From Chloroflexota bacterium (GTDB lineage Bacteria > Chloroflexota > Limnocylindria > QHBO01), in contig JBBDNI010000049.1 of the NCBI GenBank assembly GCA_040877645.1, positions 632 to 64,631 of the forward strand: a DNA stretch of 64,000 nucleotides. Direction: 5' to 3'. Position 1 is the stretch's first letter. The number at the start of each line of letters is the position of its first letter. Of this stretch, positions 2,588 to 45,370 are shown one piece after another. The translations under genes and the position numbers were made by a program. The notes below the pieces were generated by a model that searched no databases, was not told the DNA's origin, and was given only the letters and a program-made list of their open reading frames with translations.

Positions 2588-4531
2588 ATGCCACCCGCCT
2601 CCCGCTCCGGCCCCAATTCGCTGCCGCCTGGCGTCAGTGATGCCGACCTTCGCCAGATCGTCGACGGCAGCCACCCGCGGCCGTGGCAGGTGCTCGGCGC
2701 CCGTCCTGCGATCGCCGACGGGAGCGGCGGGGTCGTCTTCAGGGTGTGGGCACCGAACGCTCGCAGCGTGCGGGTGGTGGGAGCCTTCAGCGCCCGCCGC
2801 GGCGACGAGCGACCACTGGCCAGGCTCGGTGACTCGGGGGTGTGGGCCGGATTCGTGCCAGGCATCGGCCCCGGGGAGCGATACCGGTTCGAGGTGCATG
2901 GACGGGACCGCCGGACCCGGTTCAAGGCCGATCCCTACGGCTTCGCCATGGAGCGACCACCCGAGACCGCATCCCGCGTCGTGGCACAATCGGCGCACCG
3001 ATGGCGTGATGCGGCCTGGATGCGGTCACGCGCCGGTGCCGACCCGCAGCGCTCGCCGATGCACATCTACGAGGTCCACCTCGGCTCATGGCGCCGCCAT
3101 CCGGACGGGAGCTGGCTGACCTACGCCGAGATCGGCCCGCTGCTGGCCGAGCACTGCCATCGCTTCGGGTTCACGCACGTTGAGCTGCTTCCCATCGCCG
3201 AACACCCGTTCGATGGGTCGTGGGGCTACCAGGTGACCGGCTACTACGCCCCGACAGCGCGATTCGGCTCGCCGGACCAGCTGCGAGCGATGATCGATGG
3301 GCTGCATCGCGCGGGGATCGGCGTGATCCTGGACTGGGTGCCCGGCCACTTCCCGCGGGATGAGCATGCCCTCGCTCACTTCGACGGTACGTCGCTGTAC
3401 GAGCATGCCGACCCGATGCGCGGGGAGCATCCCGATTGGGGGACGCTCATCTTTGACTTCGGCAGGCCACCGGTCCGGAACTTCCTGATCGGCAACGCCC
3501 GGTACTGGCTCGAGGAGTTCCACGTCGACGGGCTGCGCGTGGATGCGGTGGCCTCGATGCTCTACCTCGACTACTCCCGCAAGAAGGGCGAGTGGAAGCC
3601 GAACGTCGAGGGCGGCAACCGAAACCTCGAGGCGATCGCCTTCCTGCGCGACCTCAACCTTGAGGTCCACGCCGCGGCACCCGGGATCACCACCGCCGCC
3701 GAGGAGTCGACCGCCTTCCCCGGCGTCACGGCGTCGGTGGCCGATGGCGGGCTGGGCTTCGACTTCAAGTGGGACCTGGGCTGGATGCATGACACGCTCG
3801 ACTACTTTGCGTCGCGGCCCAGCCGCCGCACGAAACGGCGCCGGCGCCTCACCTTCCGCGGCATGTACCTCCGCTCGGAGCGCTGGGTGCTGCCGCTCTC
3901 GCACGACGAGGTGGTGCACCTCAAGCGATCGCTGCTGGGGAGGATGCCCGGGCGACCCCCTCAGCGTTTCGGTGGCCTGCGCTCCCTGCTCGCAAACCAG
4001 ATCGGGCAGCCGGGCAAGAAGCTGCTCTTCATGGGTACCGAGCTCGCACCGAGCGGCGAGTGGAACCACGACGTCCAATTGCCGTGGAGCACGGCCTCTG
4101 ACCCCCTGCGCGACGGGCTGGCCAGGATGCTCGCCGATCTGGGCGTTCTGTATGGCGGCGAGCCGGCCCTCTGGTACGGCGATGCCGACGCGGCGGGCTT
4201 CGAGTGGATCGACGGCGGTGACGATCCGGACGACCGGACGATCGTGGCCTGGGTGCGGCGGGCGAGGCGAGGCGAAGGGCGGGATGACGAGCTGGTCGTG
4301 GTCCAGAACATGGGAAAGGCCGCGCGTGAGGGATATCGGCTCGGCCTTCCACGCGTGGGGCGTTGGGAGGAGGCCTTCAATACCGATTCGCGACACTACG
4401 GCGGGTCCGACGTTGGCAACCAGGGCCTCGTGGAGGCCACGCCCCACAGGCACGCCGGCCAGCCGGCCTCCGCCCTGGTCACCCTGCCGCCCTACGGCAC
4501 GATCTTCCTGCGTCCGCAGCGCCGGCCCTGA
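2588..4531 (+). CDS. glgB: 1,4-alpha-glucan branching enzyme
   Basis: 647 aa with GH13 catalytic motifs (GIGVILDWVPGHFP, HVDGLRVDAVASMLYLDY, EESTAFPGV) and the N-terminal CBM48-like region typical of GlgB. Confidence 0.9.
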   Translation: MPPASRSGPNSLPPGVSDADLRQIVDGSHPRPWQVLGARPAIADGSGGVVFRVWAPNARSVRVVGAFSARRGDERPLARLGDSGVWAGFVPGIGPGERYRFEVHGRDRRTRFKADPYGFAMERPPETASRVVAQSAHRWRDAAWMRSRAGADPQRSPMHIYEVHLGSWRRHPDGSWLTYAEIGPLLAEHCHRFGFTHVELLPIAEHPFDGSWGYQVTGYYAPTARFGSPDQLRAMIDGLHRAGIGVILDWVPGHFPRDEHALAHFDGTSLYEHADPMRGEHPDWGTLIFDFGRPPVRNFLIGNARYWLEEFHVDGLRVDAVASMLYLDYSRKKGEWKPNVEGGNRNLEAIAFLRDLNLEVHAAAPGITTAAEESTAFPGVTASVADGGLGFDFKWDLGWMHDTLDYFASRPSRRTKRRRRLTFRGMYLRSERWVLPLSHDEVVHLKRSLLGRMPGRPPQRFGGLRSLLANQIGQPGKKLLFMGTELAPSGEWNHDVQLPWSTASDPLRDGLARMLADLGVLYGGEPALWYGDADAAGFEWIDGGDDPDDRTIVAWVRRARRGEGRDDELVVVQNMGKAAREGYRLGLPRVGRWEEAFNTDSRHYGGSDVGNQGLVEATPHRHAGQPASALVTLPPYGTIFLRPQRRP

Positions 4532-39383: not shown

Positions 39384-39833
39384 TCAGGCCGGGAGGGCTA
39401 CCACGTTGATGGTGAGCTCGGCGTCCACGCCCGGCAACAGGCGGATGTCGGCCTTGAATTCGCCGAGGGTCTTGATCGGCTCACGCAGGTGAATCGCGTG
39501 GCGGTCGACCTCGATCCCCTCCTTCGCGATCAGCTCGGCGATCTCGCGGTTGGTGACCGAGCCGAAGAGCCGATTCTTCTCGCCCGCCTTGACGGCCACC
39601 TCGAGCTTCAGCTCTCGCAGTCGCTCAGCCTGGGCTTCGGCATCGGTGCGCAGGCCCAGCTCGCGCGCCTCGCGCTCGCCGCGGTGGCGCTCCCAATTGG
39701 CGAGCGCCCCGGCATCGGCGATCGCCGCCGCACCGCTCGGCAGCAGAAGGTTGCGCGCATAGCCGTTCTTCACGTCCTTGACGTCGCCGGCGTGGCCGAG
39801 GCCCTTCACGTCCCGCTTGAGGATCACCTTCAT
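39384..39833 (-). CDS. rplI: 50S ribosomal protein L9
   Basis: MKVILKRDVKGLGHAGDVKDVKNGYARNLLLP, 149 aa. Confidence 0.9.
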   Translation of the reverse strand: MKVILKRDVKGLGHAGDVKDVKNGYARNLLLPSGAAAIADAGALANWERHRGEREARELGLRTDAEAQAERLRELKLEVAVKAGEKNRLFGSVTNREIAELIAKEGIEVDRHAIHLREPIKTLGEFKADIRLLPGVDAELTINVVALPA

Positions 39834-39859
39834 GCTGTCAGCCGGTCCCTTTCCGTTGG

Positions 39860-40426
39860 CTAGTTGAGCTGCGCATCGCCGCGCCCGCCGGCGACCTGCA
39901 GCTCCAAGTTGTCGTCGAGCGCGTCGGTCGTGTCGGTGGATGCCGCATCGGCCACTCGTGAGTCGCCGGTTCGTGTGGTGCGCAGCTTTGCCAGCAGCTT
40001 CTTCACCGCGCGTGGGTCGCGCAGGTCGCCATAGCGCTCCAGCAGCTCAGGCAGGCTGTCGCGGATCTGGTCGTAGCGATCGCCCATCAGCGAGCGGAGC
40101 CGGGCGAGGTCGCGGTCGAGATCGGCGGTGCCATTCTTGGCCCGCTCCAAGTGGTCCTTGCGGACCTCAGCCGGCGCATTGGCGATGAACAGGTCCAGGA
40201 CCAGCATCAGGACGGTCAGGTCATCCGCCTGGCCCAGGATCGGGATCGCGTCGGGGATCAGGTCGAACGGCACGACCAGGTAGACGAGCGCCGCGCCAAG
40301 CAACGCCTTCAGGTGCACGGGCGTGCGCGGGTCGCGGACGATGCCCCAGATGACGCGCGCGTACATCGGGAGCTTCCAGATCAGGCGTGCCATGCGCACG
40401 GTGCGCCATCGGCCGGAGATGTTCAC
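39860..40426 (-). CDS. DUF1232 (YkvA-like) membrane protein
   Basis: Conserved VPFDLIPDAIPILGQADDL motif. Confidence 0.7.
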   Translation of the reverse strand: MNISGRWRTVRMARLIWKLPMYARVIWGIVRDPRTPVHLKALLGAALVYLVVPFDLIPDAIPILGQADDLTVLMLVLDLFIANAPAEVRKDHLERAKNGTADLDRDLARLRSLMGDRYDQIRDSLPELLERYGDLRDPRAVKKLLAKLRTTRTGDSRVADAASTDTTDALDDNLELQVAGGRGDAQLN

Positions 40427-40487
40427 GGGGAGCCTCCGGGTTCCAATCGGGGTGGGGGCCGATGATAACAGGCCACCGGTCCCATGG

Positions 40488-40517
40488 TTGACATTAGAAC
40501 GTCTGTTCTGCTACGGT
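40488..40517 (+). promoter_or_regulatory. lexA promoter (-35 TTGACA) with an embedded LexA Cheo box AGAACGTCTGTTCT (about 40496-40509)
   Basis: TTGACA, an 18-nt spacer, then TACGGT. The spacer contains GAAC-N4-GTTC, the Gram-positive/actinobacterial LexA consensus. It lies 45 nt upstream of the lexA TTG start. Confidence 0.7.
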
Positions 40518-40553
40518 GCTCGCGATGTCCCTGCACCGCAAAGGAGCCGCCCG

Positions 40554-41237
40554 TTGACCAGGCATGACGCCGAGCGTCGCAGGAAGATCCTGGACTGCAT
40601 CGCCCGCACCGTGGCGGAGCGAGGCTATCCGCCCAGCGTCCGCGAGATTGCCGAGGCTGTCGGCCTCGCGTCCCCGTCCGCGGTGCACCACCACCTGACC
40701 GCCCTCGAGCGCGACGGGCTGCTCGAGCGCGGCTCCCATTCGTCGCGCGCTGTGCGCCTCACGGTCCGGGGCGAGGCCGAGCTGGGACTCCCGGCGCGGC
40801 GGCCGGTGCCGGCCGAACGGAGCCGGGTGACGCCATTCCGGATGCCGATCGAGCGAGACTACCTGGCCCTGCCGGTCGTGGGCGAGATCGCCGCCGGCCA
40901 GCCGATCGAGGCGTATGCCGAGGGAGCCGAGACGCTCGACGTTCCGCGCACGATCCAGGCCCGCGACGACTCGTATGTCCTGCGGGTGCGGGGCAAGAGC
41001 ATGATCGACGCGCTGATCGACGATGGCGACTACGTCGTCGTCCAACCCCAGGCCACCGCGACCGACGGCGACATCGTGGTCGCGCTGCTCGAGGACAACG
41101 GCGTGACGCTGAAGCGCTTCTATCGCGAGAAGGACCGCATCCGACTCCAGCCCGCGAACGCCGAGATGGAGCCGATCTACGCGTCCGACGTCCAGATCCA
41201 GGGCAAGGTGGTCGGGGTCATCCGCAAGCTGAGCTGA
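40554..41237 (+). CDS. lexA: LexA repressor
   Basis: 227 aa from a TTG with AAAGGAG 7 nt upstream. Winged HTH (SVREIAEAVGLASPSAVHHHLTALERDGLL), S24 peptidase Ser/Lys dyad (RVRGKSM, LKRF) and cleavage site VVGEIAAG. Confidence 0.9.
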   Translation: MTRHDAERRRKILDCIARTVAERGYPPSVREIAEAVGLASPSAVHHHLTALERDGLLERGSHSSRAVRLTVRGEAELGLPARRPVPAERSRVTPFRMPIERDYLALPVVGEIAAGQPIEAYAEGAETLDVPRTIQARDDSYVLRVRGKSMIDALIDDGDYVVVQPQATATDGDIVVALLEDNGVTLKRFYREKDRIRLQPANAEMEPIYASDVQIQGKVVGVIRKLS

Positions 41238-41294
41238 GCCACACCCATTGACCGATGGCCGCCCGCCGGCGGCCAGTACGCTGGTGGCGTAACG

Positions 41295-42503
41295 ATGCGC
41301 ACCATCCTGCACGCCGACCTGGACGCGTTCTACGCCAGCGTCGAGGTGCTCGACGACCCATCACTGCGCGGCACGCCGGTCATCGTCGGTGGTGACCGCG
41401 GAACGCGTGGCGTAGTGATGGCGGCCTCGTACGAGGCCCGCAAATTCGGCGTCCACTCGGCAATGCCGCTGCGCACCGCCGCCAGCCTGTGCCCCACCGG
41501 CGTCTTCCTCCCCGGCCGGCCGGACCGCTATCGGGAGCTGTCGATCCAGGTGATGCGCATCTTCGCCTCATTCACGCCGATGGTCGAACCGATCAGCCTC
41601 GACGAGGCGTTCCTCGACGTCACCGGCAGCCTGGCCGTCTTCGGCGACGGCGAGACGATTGGGCGGCGCATCAAGGAGCGGGTGCTGGACGAGGCCGGAC
41701 TGGTGGTGAGCGTCGGCGTGGCGACTAACAAGCTGTGCGCCAAGGTGGCGTCGGACCTGCGCAAGCCCGATGCCCTGGTCATCGTCCCGCGCGGAGGCGA
41801 AGCGGAATTCCTGGCCCCGCTGCCGGTCAGCCGGCTGTGGGGCGTCGGCCCGCAGTCGCGGCAGGCGCTGGCCGACTATGGCGTCACGACCATCGGCCAG
41901 CTGGCGGGGCTGCCCGAGGGAACCTTGCGCCGTCGGTTCGGCACCCACGGCCTCGACCTCGCGGCACGAGCGCGCGGGATCGATCCGTCACCGGTGGTCA
42001 CCAGCCAGGCACCGAAGTCGATCGGTCACGAGCTGACGTTCGACCGCGACGTGTTCGATCGGGCACGCCTCGAGGCGACCCTGCTCGACCTGGCGGAGTC
42101 GGTGGCCAGCCGGCTGCGCAACCACCACATGGCGGCCGGAGCGGTGCAGCTCAAGCTGCGCTACGAGGGCTTCGAGACGCTGACACGGCAGATGGGCGTC
42201 CCGCGCCAGACCCGCGAGTCGGAGCCGATCTACGCCGCCGGCGTCGCCCTGCTGCGCAAGACGCTGGTCCGCGATCGCGCCGTGCGGCTGATCGGCCTGA
42301 CCGCCATCAACCTGACCGATGCCCAGCAGCTGACCCTGTTCGACGCCCCTGACAAGACCGATCGGATCACCAGGTCGATCGACGCGGTGCGCGAGCGCTT
42401 CGGCGACAAGGCGATCACCCGGGCGCGGCTGATCGGGCACCGCGACAAGCGCCGCTTCGACTTCGGGGAGCGACCCGAGGCACCAACCGACGACGAGCGA
42501 TGA
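41295..42503 (+). CDS. dinB: DNA polymerase IV (Y-family)
   Basis: MRTILHADLDAFYASVEVLDDPSLRGTPVIVGG...SLDEAFLDVTGS, 402 aa. Confidence 0.9.
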   Translation: MRTILHADLDAFYASVEVLDDPSLRGTPVIVGGDRGTRGVVMAASYEARKFGVHSAMPLRTAASLCPTGVFLPGRPDRYRELSIQVMRIFASFTPMVEPISLDEAFLDVTGSLAVFGDGETIGRRIKERVLDEAGLVVSVGVATNKLCAKVASDLRKPDALVIVPRGGEAEFLAPLPVSRLWGVGPQSRQALADYGVTTIGQLAGLPEGTLRRRFGTHGLDLAARARGIDPSPVVTSQAPKSIGHELTFDRDVFDRARLEATLLDLAESVASRLRNHHMAAGAVQLKLRYEGFETLTRQMGVPRQTRESEPIYAAGVALLRKTLVRDRAVRLIGLTAINLTDAQQLTLFDAPDKTDRITRSIDAVRERFGDKAITRARLIGHRDKRRFDFGERPEAPTDDER

Positions 42504-42508
42504 GGGTC

Positions 42509-42561
42509 TTGACATATCGAACAGATGTTCATATGCTCCACTCACATAGAACGCCTGTTCG
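42509..42561 (+). promoter_or_regulatory. Promoter (-35 TTGACA, 17-nt spacer, -10 TATGCT) with two tandem LexA Cheo boxes: TCGAACAGATGTTC in the spacer and AGAACGCCTGTTCG at about +10
   Basis: Both elements match GAAC-N4-GTTC perfectly, 17 nt apart. They lie 40-85 nt upstream of the ATG at 42601. Confidence 0.7.
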
Positions 42562-42600
42562 GTGCCCGAGGAGGCGGCGTGAAGGAGCAGAAGAAGAGAG

Positions 42601-42861
42601 ATGGCACTCACCAAGATCACGCCGACCACCGCGCATGTCCGCTGGGATCGTGCGCGCGGGCGACCCGCCGCGGTCCGCGTCGGCGGCCGCCAGCTGATCG
42701 TCACCGAGCTCGACGCCGTGCGTGACGAGACAGCCGCCTACCCCGCCGATCGCGGGCCCCGTATCACCTACATCGTGGAGACGGACGCGGGCCAGGCCTC
42801 ACTCGTCTACGACGAGCGCCGGCGCCGCTGGTTCGTCGACGCGCTCGACGAGGCAGCCTGA
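42601..42861 (+). CDS. Small hypothetical protein (86 aa), predicted SOS-inducible
   Basis: The ORF follows the dual-LexA-box promoter, with GAAGGAG 13 nt upstream. The product is soluble, has no TM segment and matches no family I recognise (MALTKITPTTAHVRWDRARGRPAAVRVGGRQLIVTELDAVRDE...). Confidence 0.5.
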   Translation: MALTKITPTTAHVRWDRARGRPAAVRVGGRQLIVTELDAVRDETAAYPADRGPRITYIVETDAGQASLVYDERRRRWFVDALDEAA

Positions 42862-42864
42862 GAC

Positions 42865-43716
42865 TCAGTCGACAGGCGCTGACTCCACGACCCAGAGCGG
42901 CTGCCCGTCGCCGGCCACGACCCGAATGGCGTCGCCGCCCGGGTCGGTGAGGCTGGTGTGGACCAGGCGAACGCGGCGGCCGTCGAGCTCGGCAATCGGG
43001 CCGGCCACCGGGGACAGGTCGAAGGTGAAGGCCCAGGCCCGCACCTGGTCGTGGATACGGCGAGCCGGCTGGCTCCAATCGACGGTGGCGTAGTCCTCGC
43101 CGAAGTGCCCGGCCCAGGTGATCCCCTCGGTCGACTGCGGGTCGCCGGGGTCGCCGGCCGCGAGGCGCCGGAAGACCTCGGGCAGCAGGCCGAGCGCGAT
43201 CGCGCCCATGCGTGGGCCAACGACGTCGATGCCGTGGTCGTCGTCGAGCATCGGCACCGGCGCCTGCGCCAGGATCGCCCCGGTGTCGAGGTCGGCGTCC
43301 ATCCGATGCCAGGTCACCCCGAACTGGCCGTCGCCATCGCGGAAGGCCCAGGCCATCGGGATCGGCCCACGATGACGCGGGAGCATCGCCGGATGGCAGT
43401 TGACCGAGCCGAGCGGCGGGACCTCGAGCGCTGACTGCGGGATGCGCCACGGAAAGCCCCAGCACAGCGCCAGGTCCGGGCGGGTTGCGCGCAGCAGCGG
43501 CTCCACGGACCATTTGTCGCGCGCCAGCAGCACGTCGACGCCCGCCGGGGCAGTCTCGTCCCCCATCGGCTGGCGTCCCGCGGGAGCCGGCTGCCGGCGA
43601 CGCGCGCTGATGACCGCCACCGGGTCGTGGCCGAGCTGCTGGAGGAAGGGGACCATGGCGTGGGCCACCGGCGGCACGGTGGTGATCAGGGCGATGCGCC
43701 AGCCGGTCTCCTTCAT
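42865..43716 (-). CDS. Formyltransferase family protein (Fmt/PurN-like, both domains)
   Basis: 283 aa. The N-terminal formyl-transferase fold includes SVNCHPAMLPRHRGPIPMAWAFRDGD (cf. HxSLLPxxRG), followed by the C-terminal Fmt-like domain. Confidence 0.65.
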   Translation of the reverse strand: MKETGWRIALITTVPPVAHAMVPFLQQLGHDPVAVISARRRQPAPAGRQPMGDETAPAGVDVLLARDKWSVEPLLRATRPDLALCWGFPWRIPQSALEVPPLGSVNCHPAMLPRHRGPIPMAWAFRDGDGQFGVTWHRMDADLDTGAILAQAPVPMLDDDHGIDVVGPRMGAIALGLLPEVFRRLAAGDPGDPQSTEGITWAGHFGEDYATVDWSQPARRIHDQVRAWAFTFDLSPVAGPIAELDGRRVRLVHTSLTDPGGDAIRVVAGDGQPLWVVESAPVD

Positions 43717-43802
43717 GGCTTTCGGAGTCTAGCCCGTACAATCCGGGCCACGGCATTCCCATGCGGGGCCCCCTCCCGCACTGCGCACGAGGCACTTCGC
43801 CG

Positions 43803-44453
43803 ATGGGCGATACCACCCGACTCACCGATCTCACCGTCCGCGACCTCACCGAGCGCCTGGCGAGCCGCGAGCCGATCCCCGGTGGCGGCAGCGCGTCGGC
43901 GCTTGCCGGTGCGTTGGGTGCCGCCCTGGTCGCCATGGTGGCCGAGCTGTCCATCGGTCGACCGGAGTCGGTTGAGCACGAGGTTGCCGCTCGCGAGCTG
44001 CTGACCGCCGGGCAGCAGCGCTGCACCGAGCTCCTCGAGCTGGCCGAGCAGGATGCGGCCGCGTACCAGGCGGTCGTCAACGCGCGCCGCCTCCCCAAGG
44101 ACTCCGAGGCCGACCGCGAAATTCGGACCGCAGCGTTGTCATTCGCAATGGTCGAAGCGGCCCGGGTGCCACTCCAGACCGCAACCGTCGCCGCCGAGGT
44201 GCTCGACCTGGCGGAACGGATCGCGTCGATCGGCAACCGGAACGCGGTCAGCGACGCAGGCGTCGCGGCCCAGCTCGCCGTTGCCGCCTTCCGTGGCGCG
44301 CTGCTGAACGTGCAGATCAACCTGCCGTACCTGCCTGACGACCATCCGCTGCGCCACTCCGCGCCGGGGGAGATTGCGCGCCTCGAGGGACTCGCCGCAG
44401 AGCGCGCGGACGGAGCGATGGCAGCGGTCAACGCACGGATGGTGGCCGCGTGA
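43803..44453 (+). CDS. Formimidoyltetrahydrofolate cyclodeaminase / methenyl-THF cyclohydrolase family (FtcD C-terminal-domain-like)
   Basis: 216 aa, all-helical cyclodeaminase fold (LASREPIPGGGSASALAGALGAALVAMVAELSIG...NVQINLPYL). The stop overlaps the folD start. Confidence 0.7.
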   Translation: MGDTTRLTDLTVRDLTERLASREPIPGGGSASALAGALGAALVAMVAELSIGRPESVEHEVAARELLTAGQQRCTELLELAEQDAAAYQAVVNARRLPKDSEADREIRTAALSFAMVEAARVPLQTATVAAEVLDLAERIASIGNRNAVSDAGVAAQLAVAAFRGALLNVQINLPYLPDDHPLRHSAPGEIARLEGLAAERADGAMAAVNARMVAA

Positions 44454-45370
44454 GCGCCAAGATCCTGGACGGCCGGACCGTGGCGTCGCGCCTGTGGCGC
44501 GATCTGTCGGACCGCATCGCCGACCTGCACGAACGAACCGGAGCCACGCCGCGCCTCGCGATCGTTCGCCTCGACGCCCGCGGCCCGTCGGCCGTCTACG
44601 CGGCCAGCGTCTGGCGCGCGGCGCGCAGCGTGGGGGTCGATGCATTCGAGGTAGCGCCACCGGAGGGCGTGACCCTCTCCGACCTGGCGGCTCGCATCGG
44701 CGCCCTCAACCGCGACCCGAGCATCGCCGGCATCGTGGTGGCGCAGCCGATCCCCGCCCACCTCGATTCGAACGCCGTGGTCGAGCTGATCGACCCGGCC
44801 AAGGACGTGGACGGCGCCACCCCGCTGAACGCCGGGCGGATCGCCCGCGGCGAGCGGACCTTCGTGCCCGCAACCGCCCTCGCGGTGATGGCCATCCTGC
44901 GCAGCTACGAGGTGCCCATCGCCGGGAAGCGAGCGGTCGTCATTGGTCGCTCCGCGGTGGTCGGTCGTCCGGCTGCTGCCCTGCTGCTGGCTGCCGACGC
45001 GACGGTGGTCATCTGCCATCGGCGCACCCGCAATCTCGCCCGCGAAACGCGGCGCGCCGAGATCCTGGTGGTCGCCGCCGGGGTGCCGAACCTCGTCCGC
45101 GCCGAGATGGTCAACCGCTCGGCGATCGTGATCGACTGCGGCATCAACACCACGCCGGAGGGGATCGTGGGCGACGTCGAGTTCGCGACCGTCCGCCCGG
45201 TGGTGACCGCCATCACCCCGGTTCCGGGGGGCGTGGGGCCGGTGACGACCATGATCCTGCTGCAGCAGACGGTCGATGCCGCCGAGCGCGCGGAGTCAGA
45301 CGACGAGCCCGCGCTGGACCGATACGCCCTGCCCGACCTCAGCTCGGTGCCGATCCGGACCGAACGCTAA
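44450..45370 (+). CDS. folD: Bifunctional methylene-THF dehydrogenase / methenyl-THF cyclohydrolase
   Basis: MSAKILDGRTVAS...RLAIVRLD..., GIVVAQPIP, VVIGRSAVVGRPAA; 306 aa. Confidence 0.9.
   Translation: MSAKILDGRTVASRLWRDLSDRIADLHERTGATPRLAIVRLDARGPSAVYAASVWRAARSVGVDAFEVAPPEGVTLSDLAARIGALNRDPSIAGIVVAQPIPAHLDSNAVVELIDPAKDVDGATPLNAGRIARGERTFVPATALAVMAILRSYEVPIAGKRAVVIGRSAVVGRPAAALLLAADATVVICHRRTRNLARETRRAEILVVAAGVPNLVRAEMVNRSAIVIDCGINTTPEGIVGDVEFATVRPVVTAITPVPGGVGPVTTMILLQQTVDAAERAESDDEPALDRYALPDLSSVPIRTER

Follow-up and report, generated by a model that had tools for sequence, protein, structure and literature searches.

A small gene behind two predicted LexA operators next to dinB in Limnocylindria, and its probable kinship with the C-terminal domain of ImuB

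What is the function of a small soluble protein whose gene lies directly behind lexA and dinB, has a promoter of its own and appears to be held in check by two LexA operators? The question is raised by a stretch of 64,000 nucleotides from a Chloroflexota bacterium of the class Limnocylindria (contig JBBDNI010000049.1 of assembly GCA_040877645.1, positions 632 to 64,631; the whole stretch is called the window here, and its G+C content is 70%), in which an open reading frame (ORF) encoding 86 amino acids is found downstream of these two genes. Our comparison of the gene, its promoter, its neighbors and its protein family makes us lean towards the reading that the product is a LexA-repressed accessory subunit or regulator of DNA polymerase IV (Pol IV), working with RecA, and that it represents a divergent, free-standing version of the domain found at the C terminus of ImuB (ImuB-C). 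Proteins of this kind have already been described computationally, and the best reading of the 86-amino-acid family is that it is a divergent, lineage-specific variant of them.

The small gene and its operators

The promoter, gene and protein features on which the argument draws are the following.

42509-42514, + strand: TTGACA, the -35 hexamer in the small gene's own promoter; TTGAC(A/G/T), 2-5 nt ahead of box 1, is kept at all related loci
42519-42530, + strand: LexA (Cheo) box 1, GAACAGATGTTC, within the promoter spacer; kept in 18 of 19 loci, with one mismatch in locus L011
42532-42537, + strand: -10 hexamer TATGCT; close relatives have GTATGCT, GTATAGT or GTATGAT, distant ones TCTAGT-like sequences
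42549-42560, + strand: LexA (Cheo) box 2, GAACGCCTGTTC, 30 bp from box 1; kept in 19 of 19 loci
42582-42587, + strand: putative Shine-Dalgarno sequence AAGGAG, 13 nt ahead of the ATG; (A/G)AAGGAG is kept in the seven distant-group loci L006-L012
42601-42861, + strand: coding sequence of the 86-amino-acid protein, which is predicted to be all-beta with six strands and is probably a free-standing, divergent ImuB-C
42721-42762, + strand: invariant loop R41-D-E43-x-A-A46-Y-P-x3-G52-P53-R54 between strands 3 and 4, where the model confidence dips locally
42829-42831, + strand: Trp77, near-invariant (without variation in four alignments, and kept in 90% or more of the 112 members described below)
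42853-42858, + strand: C-terminal Ala-Ala, a putative ssrA-like degron kept in nearly all members

The ORF is a genuine gene under purifying selection. Its G+C content by codon position (0.75/0.55/0.87) resembles that of lexA, dinB and the downstream gene, a pattern missing from the overlapping alternative frames, and comparison with three orthologues of 70-83% identity gave 35-44 changes at third positions versus 10-16 at positions 1 and 2, with 25-29 synonymous and 15-26 nonsynonymous codon changes. A word-indexed search returned 188 close homologues, the top 120 of which share at least 69% identity and are nearly all 86 amino acids long, and profile searches gave 684 and 469 homologous proteins. 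The family is nonetheless narrow, since only 105 members (37 below 1e-10) came out of an exhaustive hidden Markov model (HMM) search through 1.84 billion cluster representatives; the source names of the homologues are all Chloroflexota, Candidatus Limnocylindria or Limnocylindrales. Positions P22, R41, E43, A46, G52, P53, R54 and W77 are invariant or nearly so family-wide. Longer proteins among the HMM matches proved to be fusions with neighboring dinB or ftcD gene calls rather than new architectures, and a tblastn search of phages and plasmids gave no match. One locus (L023, 3727-4930) shows a tandem partial duplication: behind the first copy come a second dinB 3' end, the two Cheo boxes (4518 and 4550) and another copy of the small gene, which is decaying.

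The promoter is the lone sigma70-like site in 39500-44500 (TTGACA, a 17-nt spacer and TATGCT at 42509-42537), matching at 10 of 12 positions where the promoter scan expected 0.2 sites. Both LexA boxes in it are perfect copies of GAAC-N4-GTTC, and box 2 begins about 5-6 nt past the expected transcription start. Conservation was followed across 19 loci: 12 found through the protein alone (L001-L012) and 8 found through a scan of GTDB genomes for dinB (L022-L024 and L026-L030), less L003 and L005 as near-duplicates of L002 and L004, plus the window itself, with protein identity to the window falling to about 40%. The same succession of TTGAC(A/G/T), a gap of 2-5 nt, a perfect box 1, a -10-like element and a perfect box 2 recurs in 18 of these loci (L011 has the mismatch in box 1 listed above), with a box-to-box spacing of 27-35 bp; the intergenic DNA flanking the promoter and boxes diverges. 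Two Limnocylindria-like dinB loci that have no small gene (L025 and L031) have no boxes either. Directly upstream of the small gene stands dinB, in 19 of 19 loci and in 12 of the 12 found through the protein alone.

The initial annotation of the locus, made from its sequence alone, had described a near-consensus promoter with one perfect box in the spacer and a second just past the start, in front of a gene downstream of lexA and dinB. All of these elements are present at the positions given, and Pfam identifies both genes directly upstream. The conservation that it proposed to check, with orthologues behind Cheo boxes near dinB or lexA, was found as well (more than 680 homologues, substitutions biased to third positions, two perfect boxes in 18 of 19 loci, dinB always upstream), and its prediction of tight LexA repression is well founded, since the promoter does carry two operators and is kept so strongly among relatives. 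The comparative evidence for LexA control of the small gene is strong, and binding by LexA and induction upon damage would be expected from it.

Perfect copies of GAACNNNNGTTC number four in the 64-kb window (42519, 42549, 40497 and 3200) versus 0.35 expected. The fourth, at 3200-3211, lies inside the coding sequence of glgB (branching enzyme), where it encodes part of a conserved AEHPFDG stretch, and is most likely a chance match rather than an operator. The distant subgroup L006-L012 has, in addition, a near-invariant GTGCCCCGG in the 5' untranslated region of the small gene, about 8-14 nt past box 2, and the window has a weaker counterpart, GGTGCCCGAGG, at 42561-42571. An N-terminal extension or an upstream ORF beginning at a conserved GTG in this region was considered and rejected because its frame is not consistently that of the ATG. 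An Rfam scan of the region gave no match, and no tRNA or tmRNA gene was found in the window.

Relationship to the C-terminal domain of ImuB

No family above threshold was found for the 86-amino-acid protein in scans against Pfam, NCBIfam, PHROGs and PADLOC, in agreement with the earlier description of a soluble protein of no recognizable family that lacks a transmembrane segment and a LysM domain. The maximum Kyte-Doolittle hydropathy over 19 residues is 0.62, the isoelectric point (pI) is 8.2, and the protein has 13 Arg residues. The AlphaFold2 model (predicted local distance difference test [pLDDT] score 85, predicted template modeling score 0.71) has six beta-strands and no helix. A fold search found no neighbor in the PDB for this predicted all-beta fold, and a profile search of PDB sequences with the family returned noise only; the lack of a fold neighbor is explained if the protein is of ImuB-C type, because no ImuB was found in the PDB by sequence.

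The relationship came into view when the family members were scanned one by one. Among 112 member proteins, non-redundant at 80% identity and with matches counted at an E value of at most 1, DUF6504 (PF20114) was by far the most frequent family, matched by 21. The best of these matches (protein P0185, E = 1.7e-4) scored 22.3 bits, compared with a cut-off of 24.2, and placed residues 18-80 on positions 24-100 of the 103 in the profile. DUF6504 corresponds to the ImuB C-terminal domain, since it matches the extreme C termini of ImuB proteins encoded in imuA-imuB-dnaE2 cassettes on plasmids (31.8 bits in L016, 25.2 in L020, 22.9 in L019 and 17.9 in L014). When the family was aligned by hhalign with 6 and then 13 ImuB C termini, a single collinear alignment of 72-77 columns resulted (P = 0.0014-0.0073), pairing PREITWG..rLpV with PP..f.WRG..r.V, GPR-T-x-F-x-V-x-T with (V)RDYF.VE, and RRW.VE with hRWF.HG. 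By these pairings R54 and W77 fall on conserved ImuB-C residues, namely the Arg of ImuB RDYF and the invariant Trp of ImuB WF(L)HG. None of 150 column shuffles reached the observed score of 22.1-22.9 (null mean 10.8-11.7, standard deviation 2.2-2.3, maximum 21.9), and the reversed template scored 13-14.

The published features of ImuB-C point the same way. Aravind et al. defined it as a domain some 80 residues long and rich in beta-strands, in which a C-terminal Trp is highly conserved and at least two basic residues are conserved too, and found standalone copies most often beside dinB and often with lexA (PMC3765255); a 2026 survey models it as a beta-barrel that has a novel fold, lacks relatives in the PDB and docks onto DnaE2, at its PHP domain, and onto ImuA (PMC12926913). 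The family studied here likewise comprises mainly-beta proteins, some 80 residues long, that conserve a Trp near the C terminus and two basic residues (R41 and R54), and its genes lie beside that of a Y-family polymerase, dinB, often with lexA. Timinskas and Venclovas described systems of an active Y-family polymerase (PolY) with a standalone ImuB-C, and RecA, in which the polymerases carry a RecA-NT-like motif, resembling the RecA N terminus (PMC6511836), and a lexA-imuB-C-polY operon of Geobacter is cited as damage induced (PMC6511836). With the free-standing ImuB-C proteins, whose prototype is Geobacter sulfurreducens GSU0042, the small protein shares its size (about 80-90 amino acids), an all-beta makeup, the C-terminal Trp, the basic residues, the lack of a catalytic motif and of structural relatives in the PDB, the position beside an active Y-family polymerase and lexA, and SOS control, here predicted. 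It differs from them in that the window protein falls below Pfam detection, in its invariant RDE-x-AAYP-x3-GPR loop and Ala-Ala tail, and in its restriction to Limnocylindria. Gene order differs as well: the small gene here lies downstream of dinB behind its own double-operator promoter, whereas the Geobacter genes form a single lexA-imuB-C-polY unit. The ImuB C terminus in the mutasome ImuA-ImuB-DnaE2 is presumably the same domain, aligned by hhalign over its whole length and likewise SOS linked; unlike it, the domain here stands free of any polymerase-like protein, the polymerase it would partner is catalytically intact, and imuA and dnaE2 are not in the neighborhood of the small gene.

The sequence resemblance is weak yet reproducible. 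We regard homology of the family to ImuB-C as likely, and several observations weigh against it. Neither the window protein nor any of the four family consensus sequences matched DUF6504, all of the matches among members stayed below the Pfam gathering score, and the hhalign probabilities against ImuB-C were only 2-18%. A direct search of proteobacterial ImuB C termini with the family HMM was not significant, and the search of 1.84 billion representatives returned only Limnocylindria-like small proteins and no recognized ImuB. ImuB C termini do not end in Ala-Ala, and the ImuB motifs GPERI, EWW, RDYF and HGxF are not conserved in the 86-amino-acid family. Likeness to the standalone proteins was drawn from their published descriptions, the sequence comparison being with ImuB C termini only; among 70 dinB loci of other phyla, no standalone ImuB-C was found beside dinB.

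The initial annotation had proposed an undescribed SOS effector and had listed a cell division inhibitor, a toxin and a translesion synthesis accessory factor as possible functions. SOS control stands as a prediction, and the accessory factor is favored because three lines of evidence (the DUF6504 matches, the hhalign alignment and the published features) point to the ImuB-C superfamily; the same evidence lends no support to an inhibitor of division or a toxin, and the proposal of an undescribed effector holds only in part.

Two further signals in the protein were set aside. Matches to Peptidase_S6 in 8 of the 112 members cover only a fragment and were judged spurious, and a beta-clamp motif could be read at Q65-ASLVF, which lies inside strand 5 and whose Gln is absent from the distant subgroup. 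The invariant RDE-x-AAYP-x3-GPR loop is a probable interaction surface. An Ala-Ala ending was found in 118 of 120 close members and in 103 of 118 profile matches, following tails that vary in length and sequence, which suggests that the two residues are a putative ssrA-like signal for proteolytic removal of the ClpXP type.

The lexA-dinB neighborhood

The genes upstream of the small gene supply the candidate partner and the candidate repressor.

40497-40508, + strand: LexA box of Cheo type, GAACGTCTGTTC, placed in the promoter of lexA 3 nt behind a TTGACA; a box stands at the equivalent lexA-adjacent place in L001-L007, L010 and L012
40527-41237, + strand: lexA (Pfam LexA_DNA_bind and Peptidase_S24); the start is approximate, taken as the first GTG past the operator
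41295-42503, + strand: dinB, encoding the Y-family DNA polymerase IV (Pfam IMS, IMS_HHH and IMS_C)
42354-42422, + strand: RecA-NT-like motif within the extension at the DinB C terminus (KTDRITRSIDAVRERFGDKAITR, SIDAVRERFGDKAITRARL); hhalign against E. coli RecA residues 7-29, P = 0.003

The translation of dinB has its catalytic acidic residues intact (HADLDAF..., SLDEAFLD). Pfam DUF4113, applied to eight DinB tails, gave one weak match only, in one orthologue. Behind the RecA-NT-like motif, close relatives share a conserved RRFDFGERP and distant ones PFERDP. Orthologues of lexA encode 216-239 amino acids, and the box at 40497-40508 is predicted to be the autoregulatory operator of a lexA-dinB unit. 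This promoter (40487-40508) has the layout TTGACA-N3-Cheo box in a region shared with a divergent gene for a DUF1232 membrane protein (39860-40426, - strand); the two divergent genes again have a box between them in L001-L007, L010 and L012, so LexA may control the DUF1232 gene as well.

Gene order around dinB and the small gene varies on both sides, and the pair stays together throughout. (In L011 a small opposite-strand ORF has been called between the two.) In the window and its close relatives lexA adjoins, and in the distant subgroup it is inverted and displaced; to its left dinB has lexA in some loci and, in others, an AlkZ-like gene, rplI or unrelated opposite-strand genes. In one sublineage (L002, 3557-4711; L003, 2358-3512) the AlkZ-like gene, of a DNA glycosylase family, stands as an insertion separating lexA from dinB and is presumably part of the LexA-controlled unit. 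To the right of the small gene, ftcD-folD usually follows, with occasional insertions of a formyltransferase-like gene or a nucleotidyltransferase/HepT pair. In the window the formyltransferase-like gene (42865-43716, - strand) converges on the small gene with 3 nt between the stop codons, and no intrinsic terminator was found between them; the window and L001 have this gene, and L002, L004 and the distant loci lack it at that position. The other insertion, in L008 (6545-7739), places a nucleotidyltransferase (Polbeta/NTP_transf_2) and HepT-like toxin-antitoxin pair between the small gene and ftcD.

Two aspects of this neighborhood tell against a dedicated partnership of the small protein with Pol IV. 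Because ftcD-folD, downstream, is conserved as well, inherited synteny could account for part of the linkage to dinB; and in L006-L009 dinB has no Cheo box (allowing one mismatch) directly upstream and no longer lies downstream of lexA, so that dinB and the small gene are not always coregulated. In those four loci the predicted tightly LexA-controlled unit is the small gene itself, with its two perfect boxes.

Competing explanations and proposed role

Both aspects would fit a lineage-specific SOS effector unrelated to ImuB-C, such as a cytoplasmic inhibitor acting at a division or replication checkpoint in the manner of SulA, for which adjacency to dinB would be no more than inherited synteny. 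The ImuB-C signal would then be convergent or spurious, and the family would be a group of Limnocylindria-specific cytoplasmic checkpoint effectors with a new beta fold, kept off by the double LexA operator because they harm the cell (by blocking division or replication, for example) and cleared by way of a built-in ssrA-like degron. The lack of any family match at threshold or structural neighbor and the confinement to one class agree with this explanation, and the combination of a double operator and a degron is typical of harmful, transient effectors. We nevertheless consider it unlikely: DUF6504 matches recur in 21 of the 112 members, the full-length collinear hhalign match beats all 150 shuffles and aligns the conserved Trp and Arg with those of ImuB-C, and the pair with dinB survives rearrangements on both sides. 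The protein shares with SulA, YneA, ChiZ, DivS and SidA its small size and, as predicted, LexA repression and transience, but it does not otherwise resemble SulA, YneA, ChiZ or SidA, has neither a transmembrane segment nor a LysM domain nor the SulA fold, and its genomic partner is a polymerase.

A second explanation keeps the relationship to ImuB-C and changes the function, the protein being a sensor or binder of damaged DNA that recruits repair and tolerance enzymes generally rather than a dedicated subunit of Pol IV. ImuB-C has indeed been proposed to bind DNA lesions, with links to Ku/ligase, SplB, SRAP and polymerases (PMC3765255), and the richness in Arg, some of it invariant, the basic pI and a promoter separate from that of dinB would all suit such a role. 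AlphaFold-based work, however, assigns ImuB-C to protein docking, on the DnaE2 PHP domain and ImuA (PMC12926913), dinB is the only constant DNA repair neighbor in the lineage, and no nucleic acid-binding fold was recognized, which together make a general damage sensor quite unlikely. A modulator of the RecA filament or a toxin-like SOS product, comparable to DinI, RecX or SymE, would also be small, SOS controlled and probably short-lived, and RecA is likely to be nearby, given the motif in the neighboring DinB. We hold this to be very improbable, since the protein shows no similarity to DinI, RecX or SymE, matches no PADLOC or toxin-antitoxin model, has no antitoxin-like partner gene, and has an all-beta prediction unlike DinI or RecX. 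That the ORF is a chance product of GC-rich DNA, in which many spurious ORFs arise, with boxes that regulate something else, is effectively refuted by its coding-type codon positions and third-position substitution bias, by hundreds of homologues with shared invariant residues, and by the Shine-Dalgarno sequence kept in the distant group, the conserved ATG start and the pLDDT of 85.

For the reading towards which we lean, that of a LexA-repressed partner of Pol IV, we infer LexA binding and induction, the physical partners, the effect on translesion synthesis and the proteolysis from the features described above. As long as the cell is undamaged, the box in the promoter spacer and the one at about +5 to +17 would each be occupied by a LexA dimer; lying 27-35 bp apart, about three helical turns, the two would jointly shut a strong promoter. 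DNA damage would lead to RecA-stimulated cleavage of LexA and release of the promoter, and a small, soluble, beta-barrel-like protein would accumulate. This protein would join the Pol IV/DinB encoded upstream as a noncatalytic accessory factor or regulator of translesion synthesis, with RecA as a likely third partner because DinB carries the RecA-NT-like tail. Once LexA represses again, the factor would be cleared quickly by ssrA-like proteolysis of the ClpXP type directed by the terminal Ala-Ala; we propose this fast loss because the Ala-Ala is found family-wide.

Comparable logic is known from unrelated proteins. In E. coli, recN has three SOS boxes and its product a C-terminal ClpXP signal (PMC10714372), so that several LexA boxes and a proteolytic tag confine the protein to the damage period; RecN is SMC-like and unrelated to the small protein, whose degron is suggested by the conservation of the terminal Ala-Ala alone. 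The level of UmuD' is limited by ClpXP proteolysis (PMC6590174), and UmuD' and YolD-YqjX, of the Pol V-type mutasomes, are small, beta-rich, SOS-induced accessories of a Y-family polymerase that are limited by proteolysis, as is proposed here for the small protein. No relationship in sequence or fold links it to them: it lacks a cleavage site, does not belong to the S24 peptidases and gave no Pfam match.

The prediction that free-standing ImuB-C proteins are partners of error-prone polymerases dates from 2013; none of these proteins has been characterized experimentally, and their fold is without a solved relative. The source organisms of the present family are uncultured, which tempers its appeal, and the RDE-x-AAYP-x3-GPR loop and Trp77 offer targets for mutagenesis in asking what ImuB-C domains bind. 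Two operators on a strong promoter together with a terminal Ala-Ala imply a factor limited to the period of damage, as are UmuD' and RecN in E. coli. If our reading is true, the module of a Y-family polymerase and ImuB-C would extend to an abundant class of soil and freshwater Chloroflexota.

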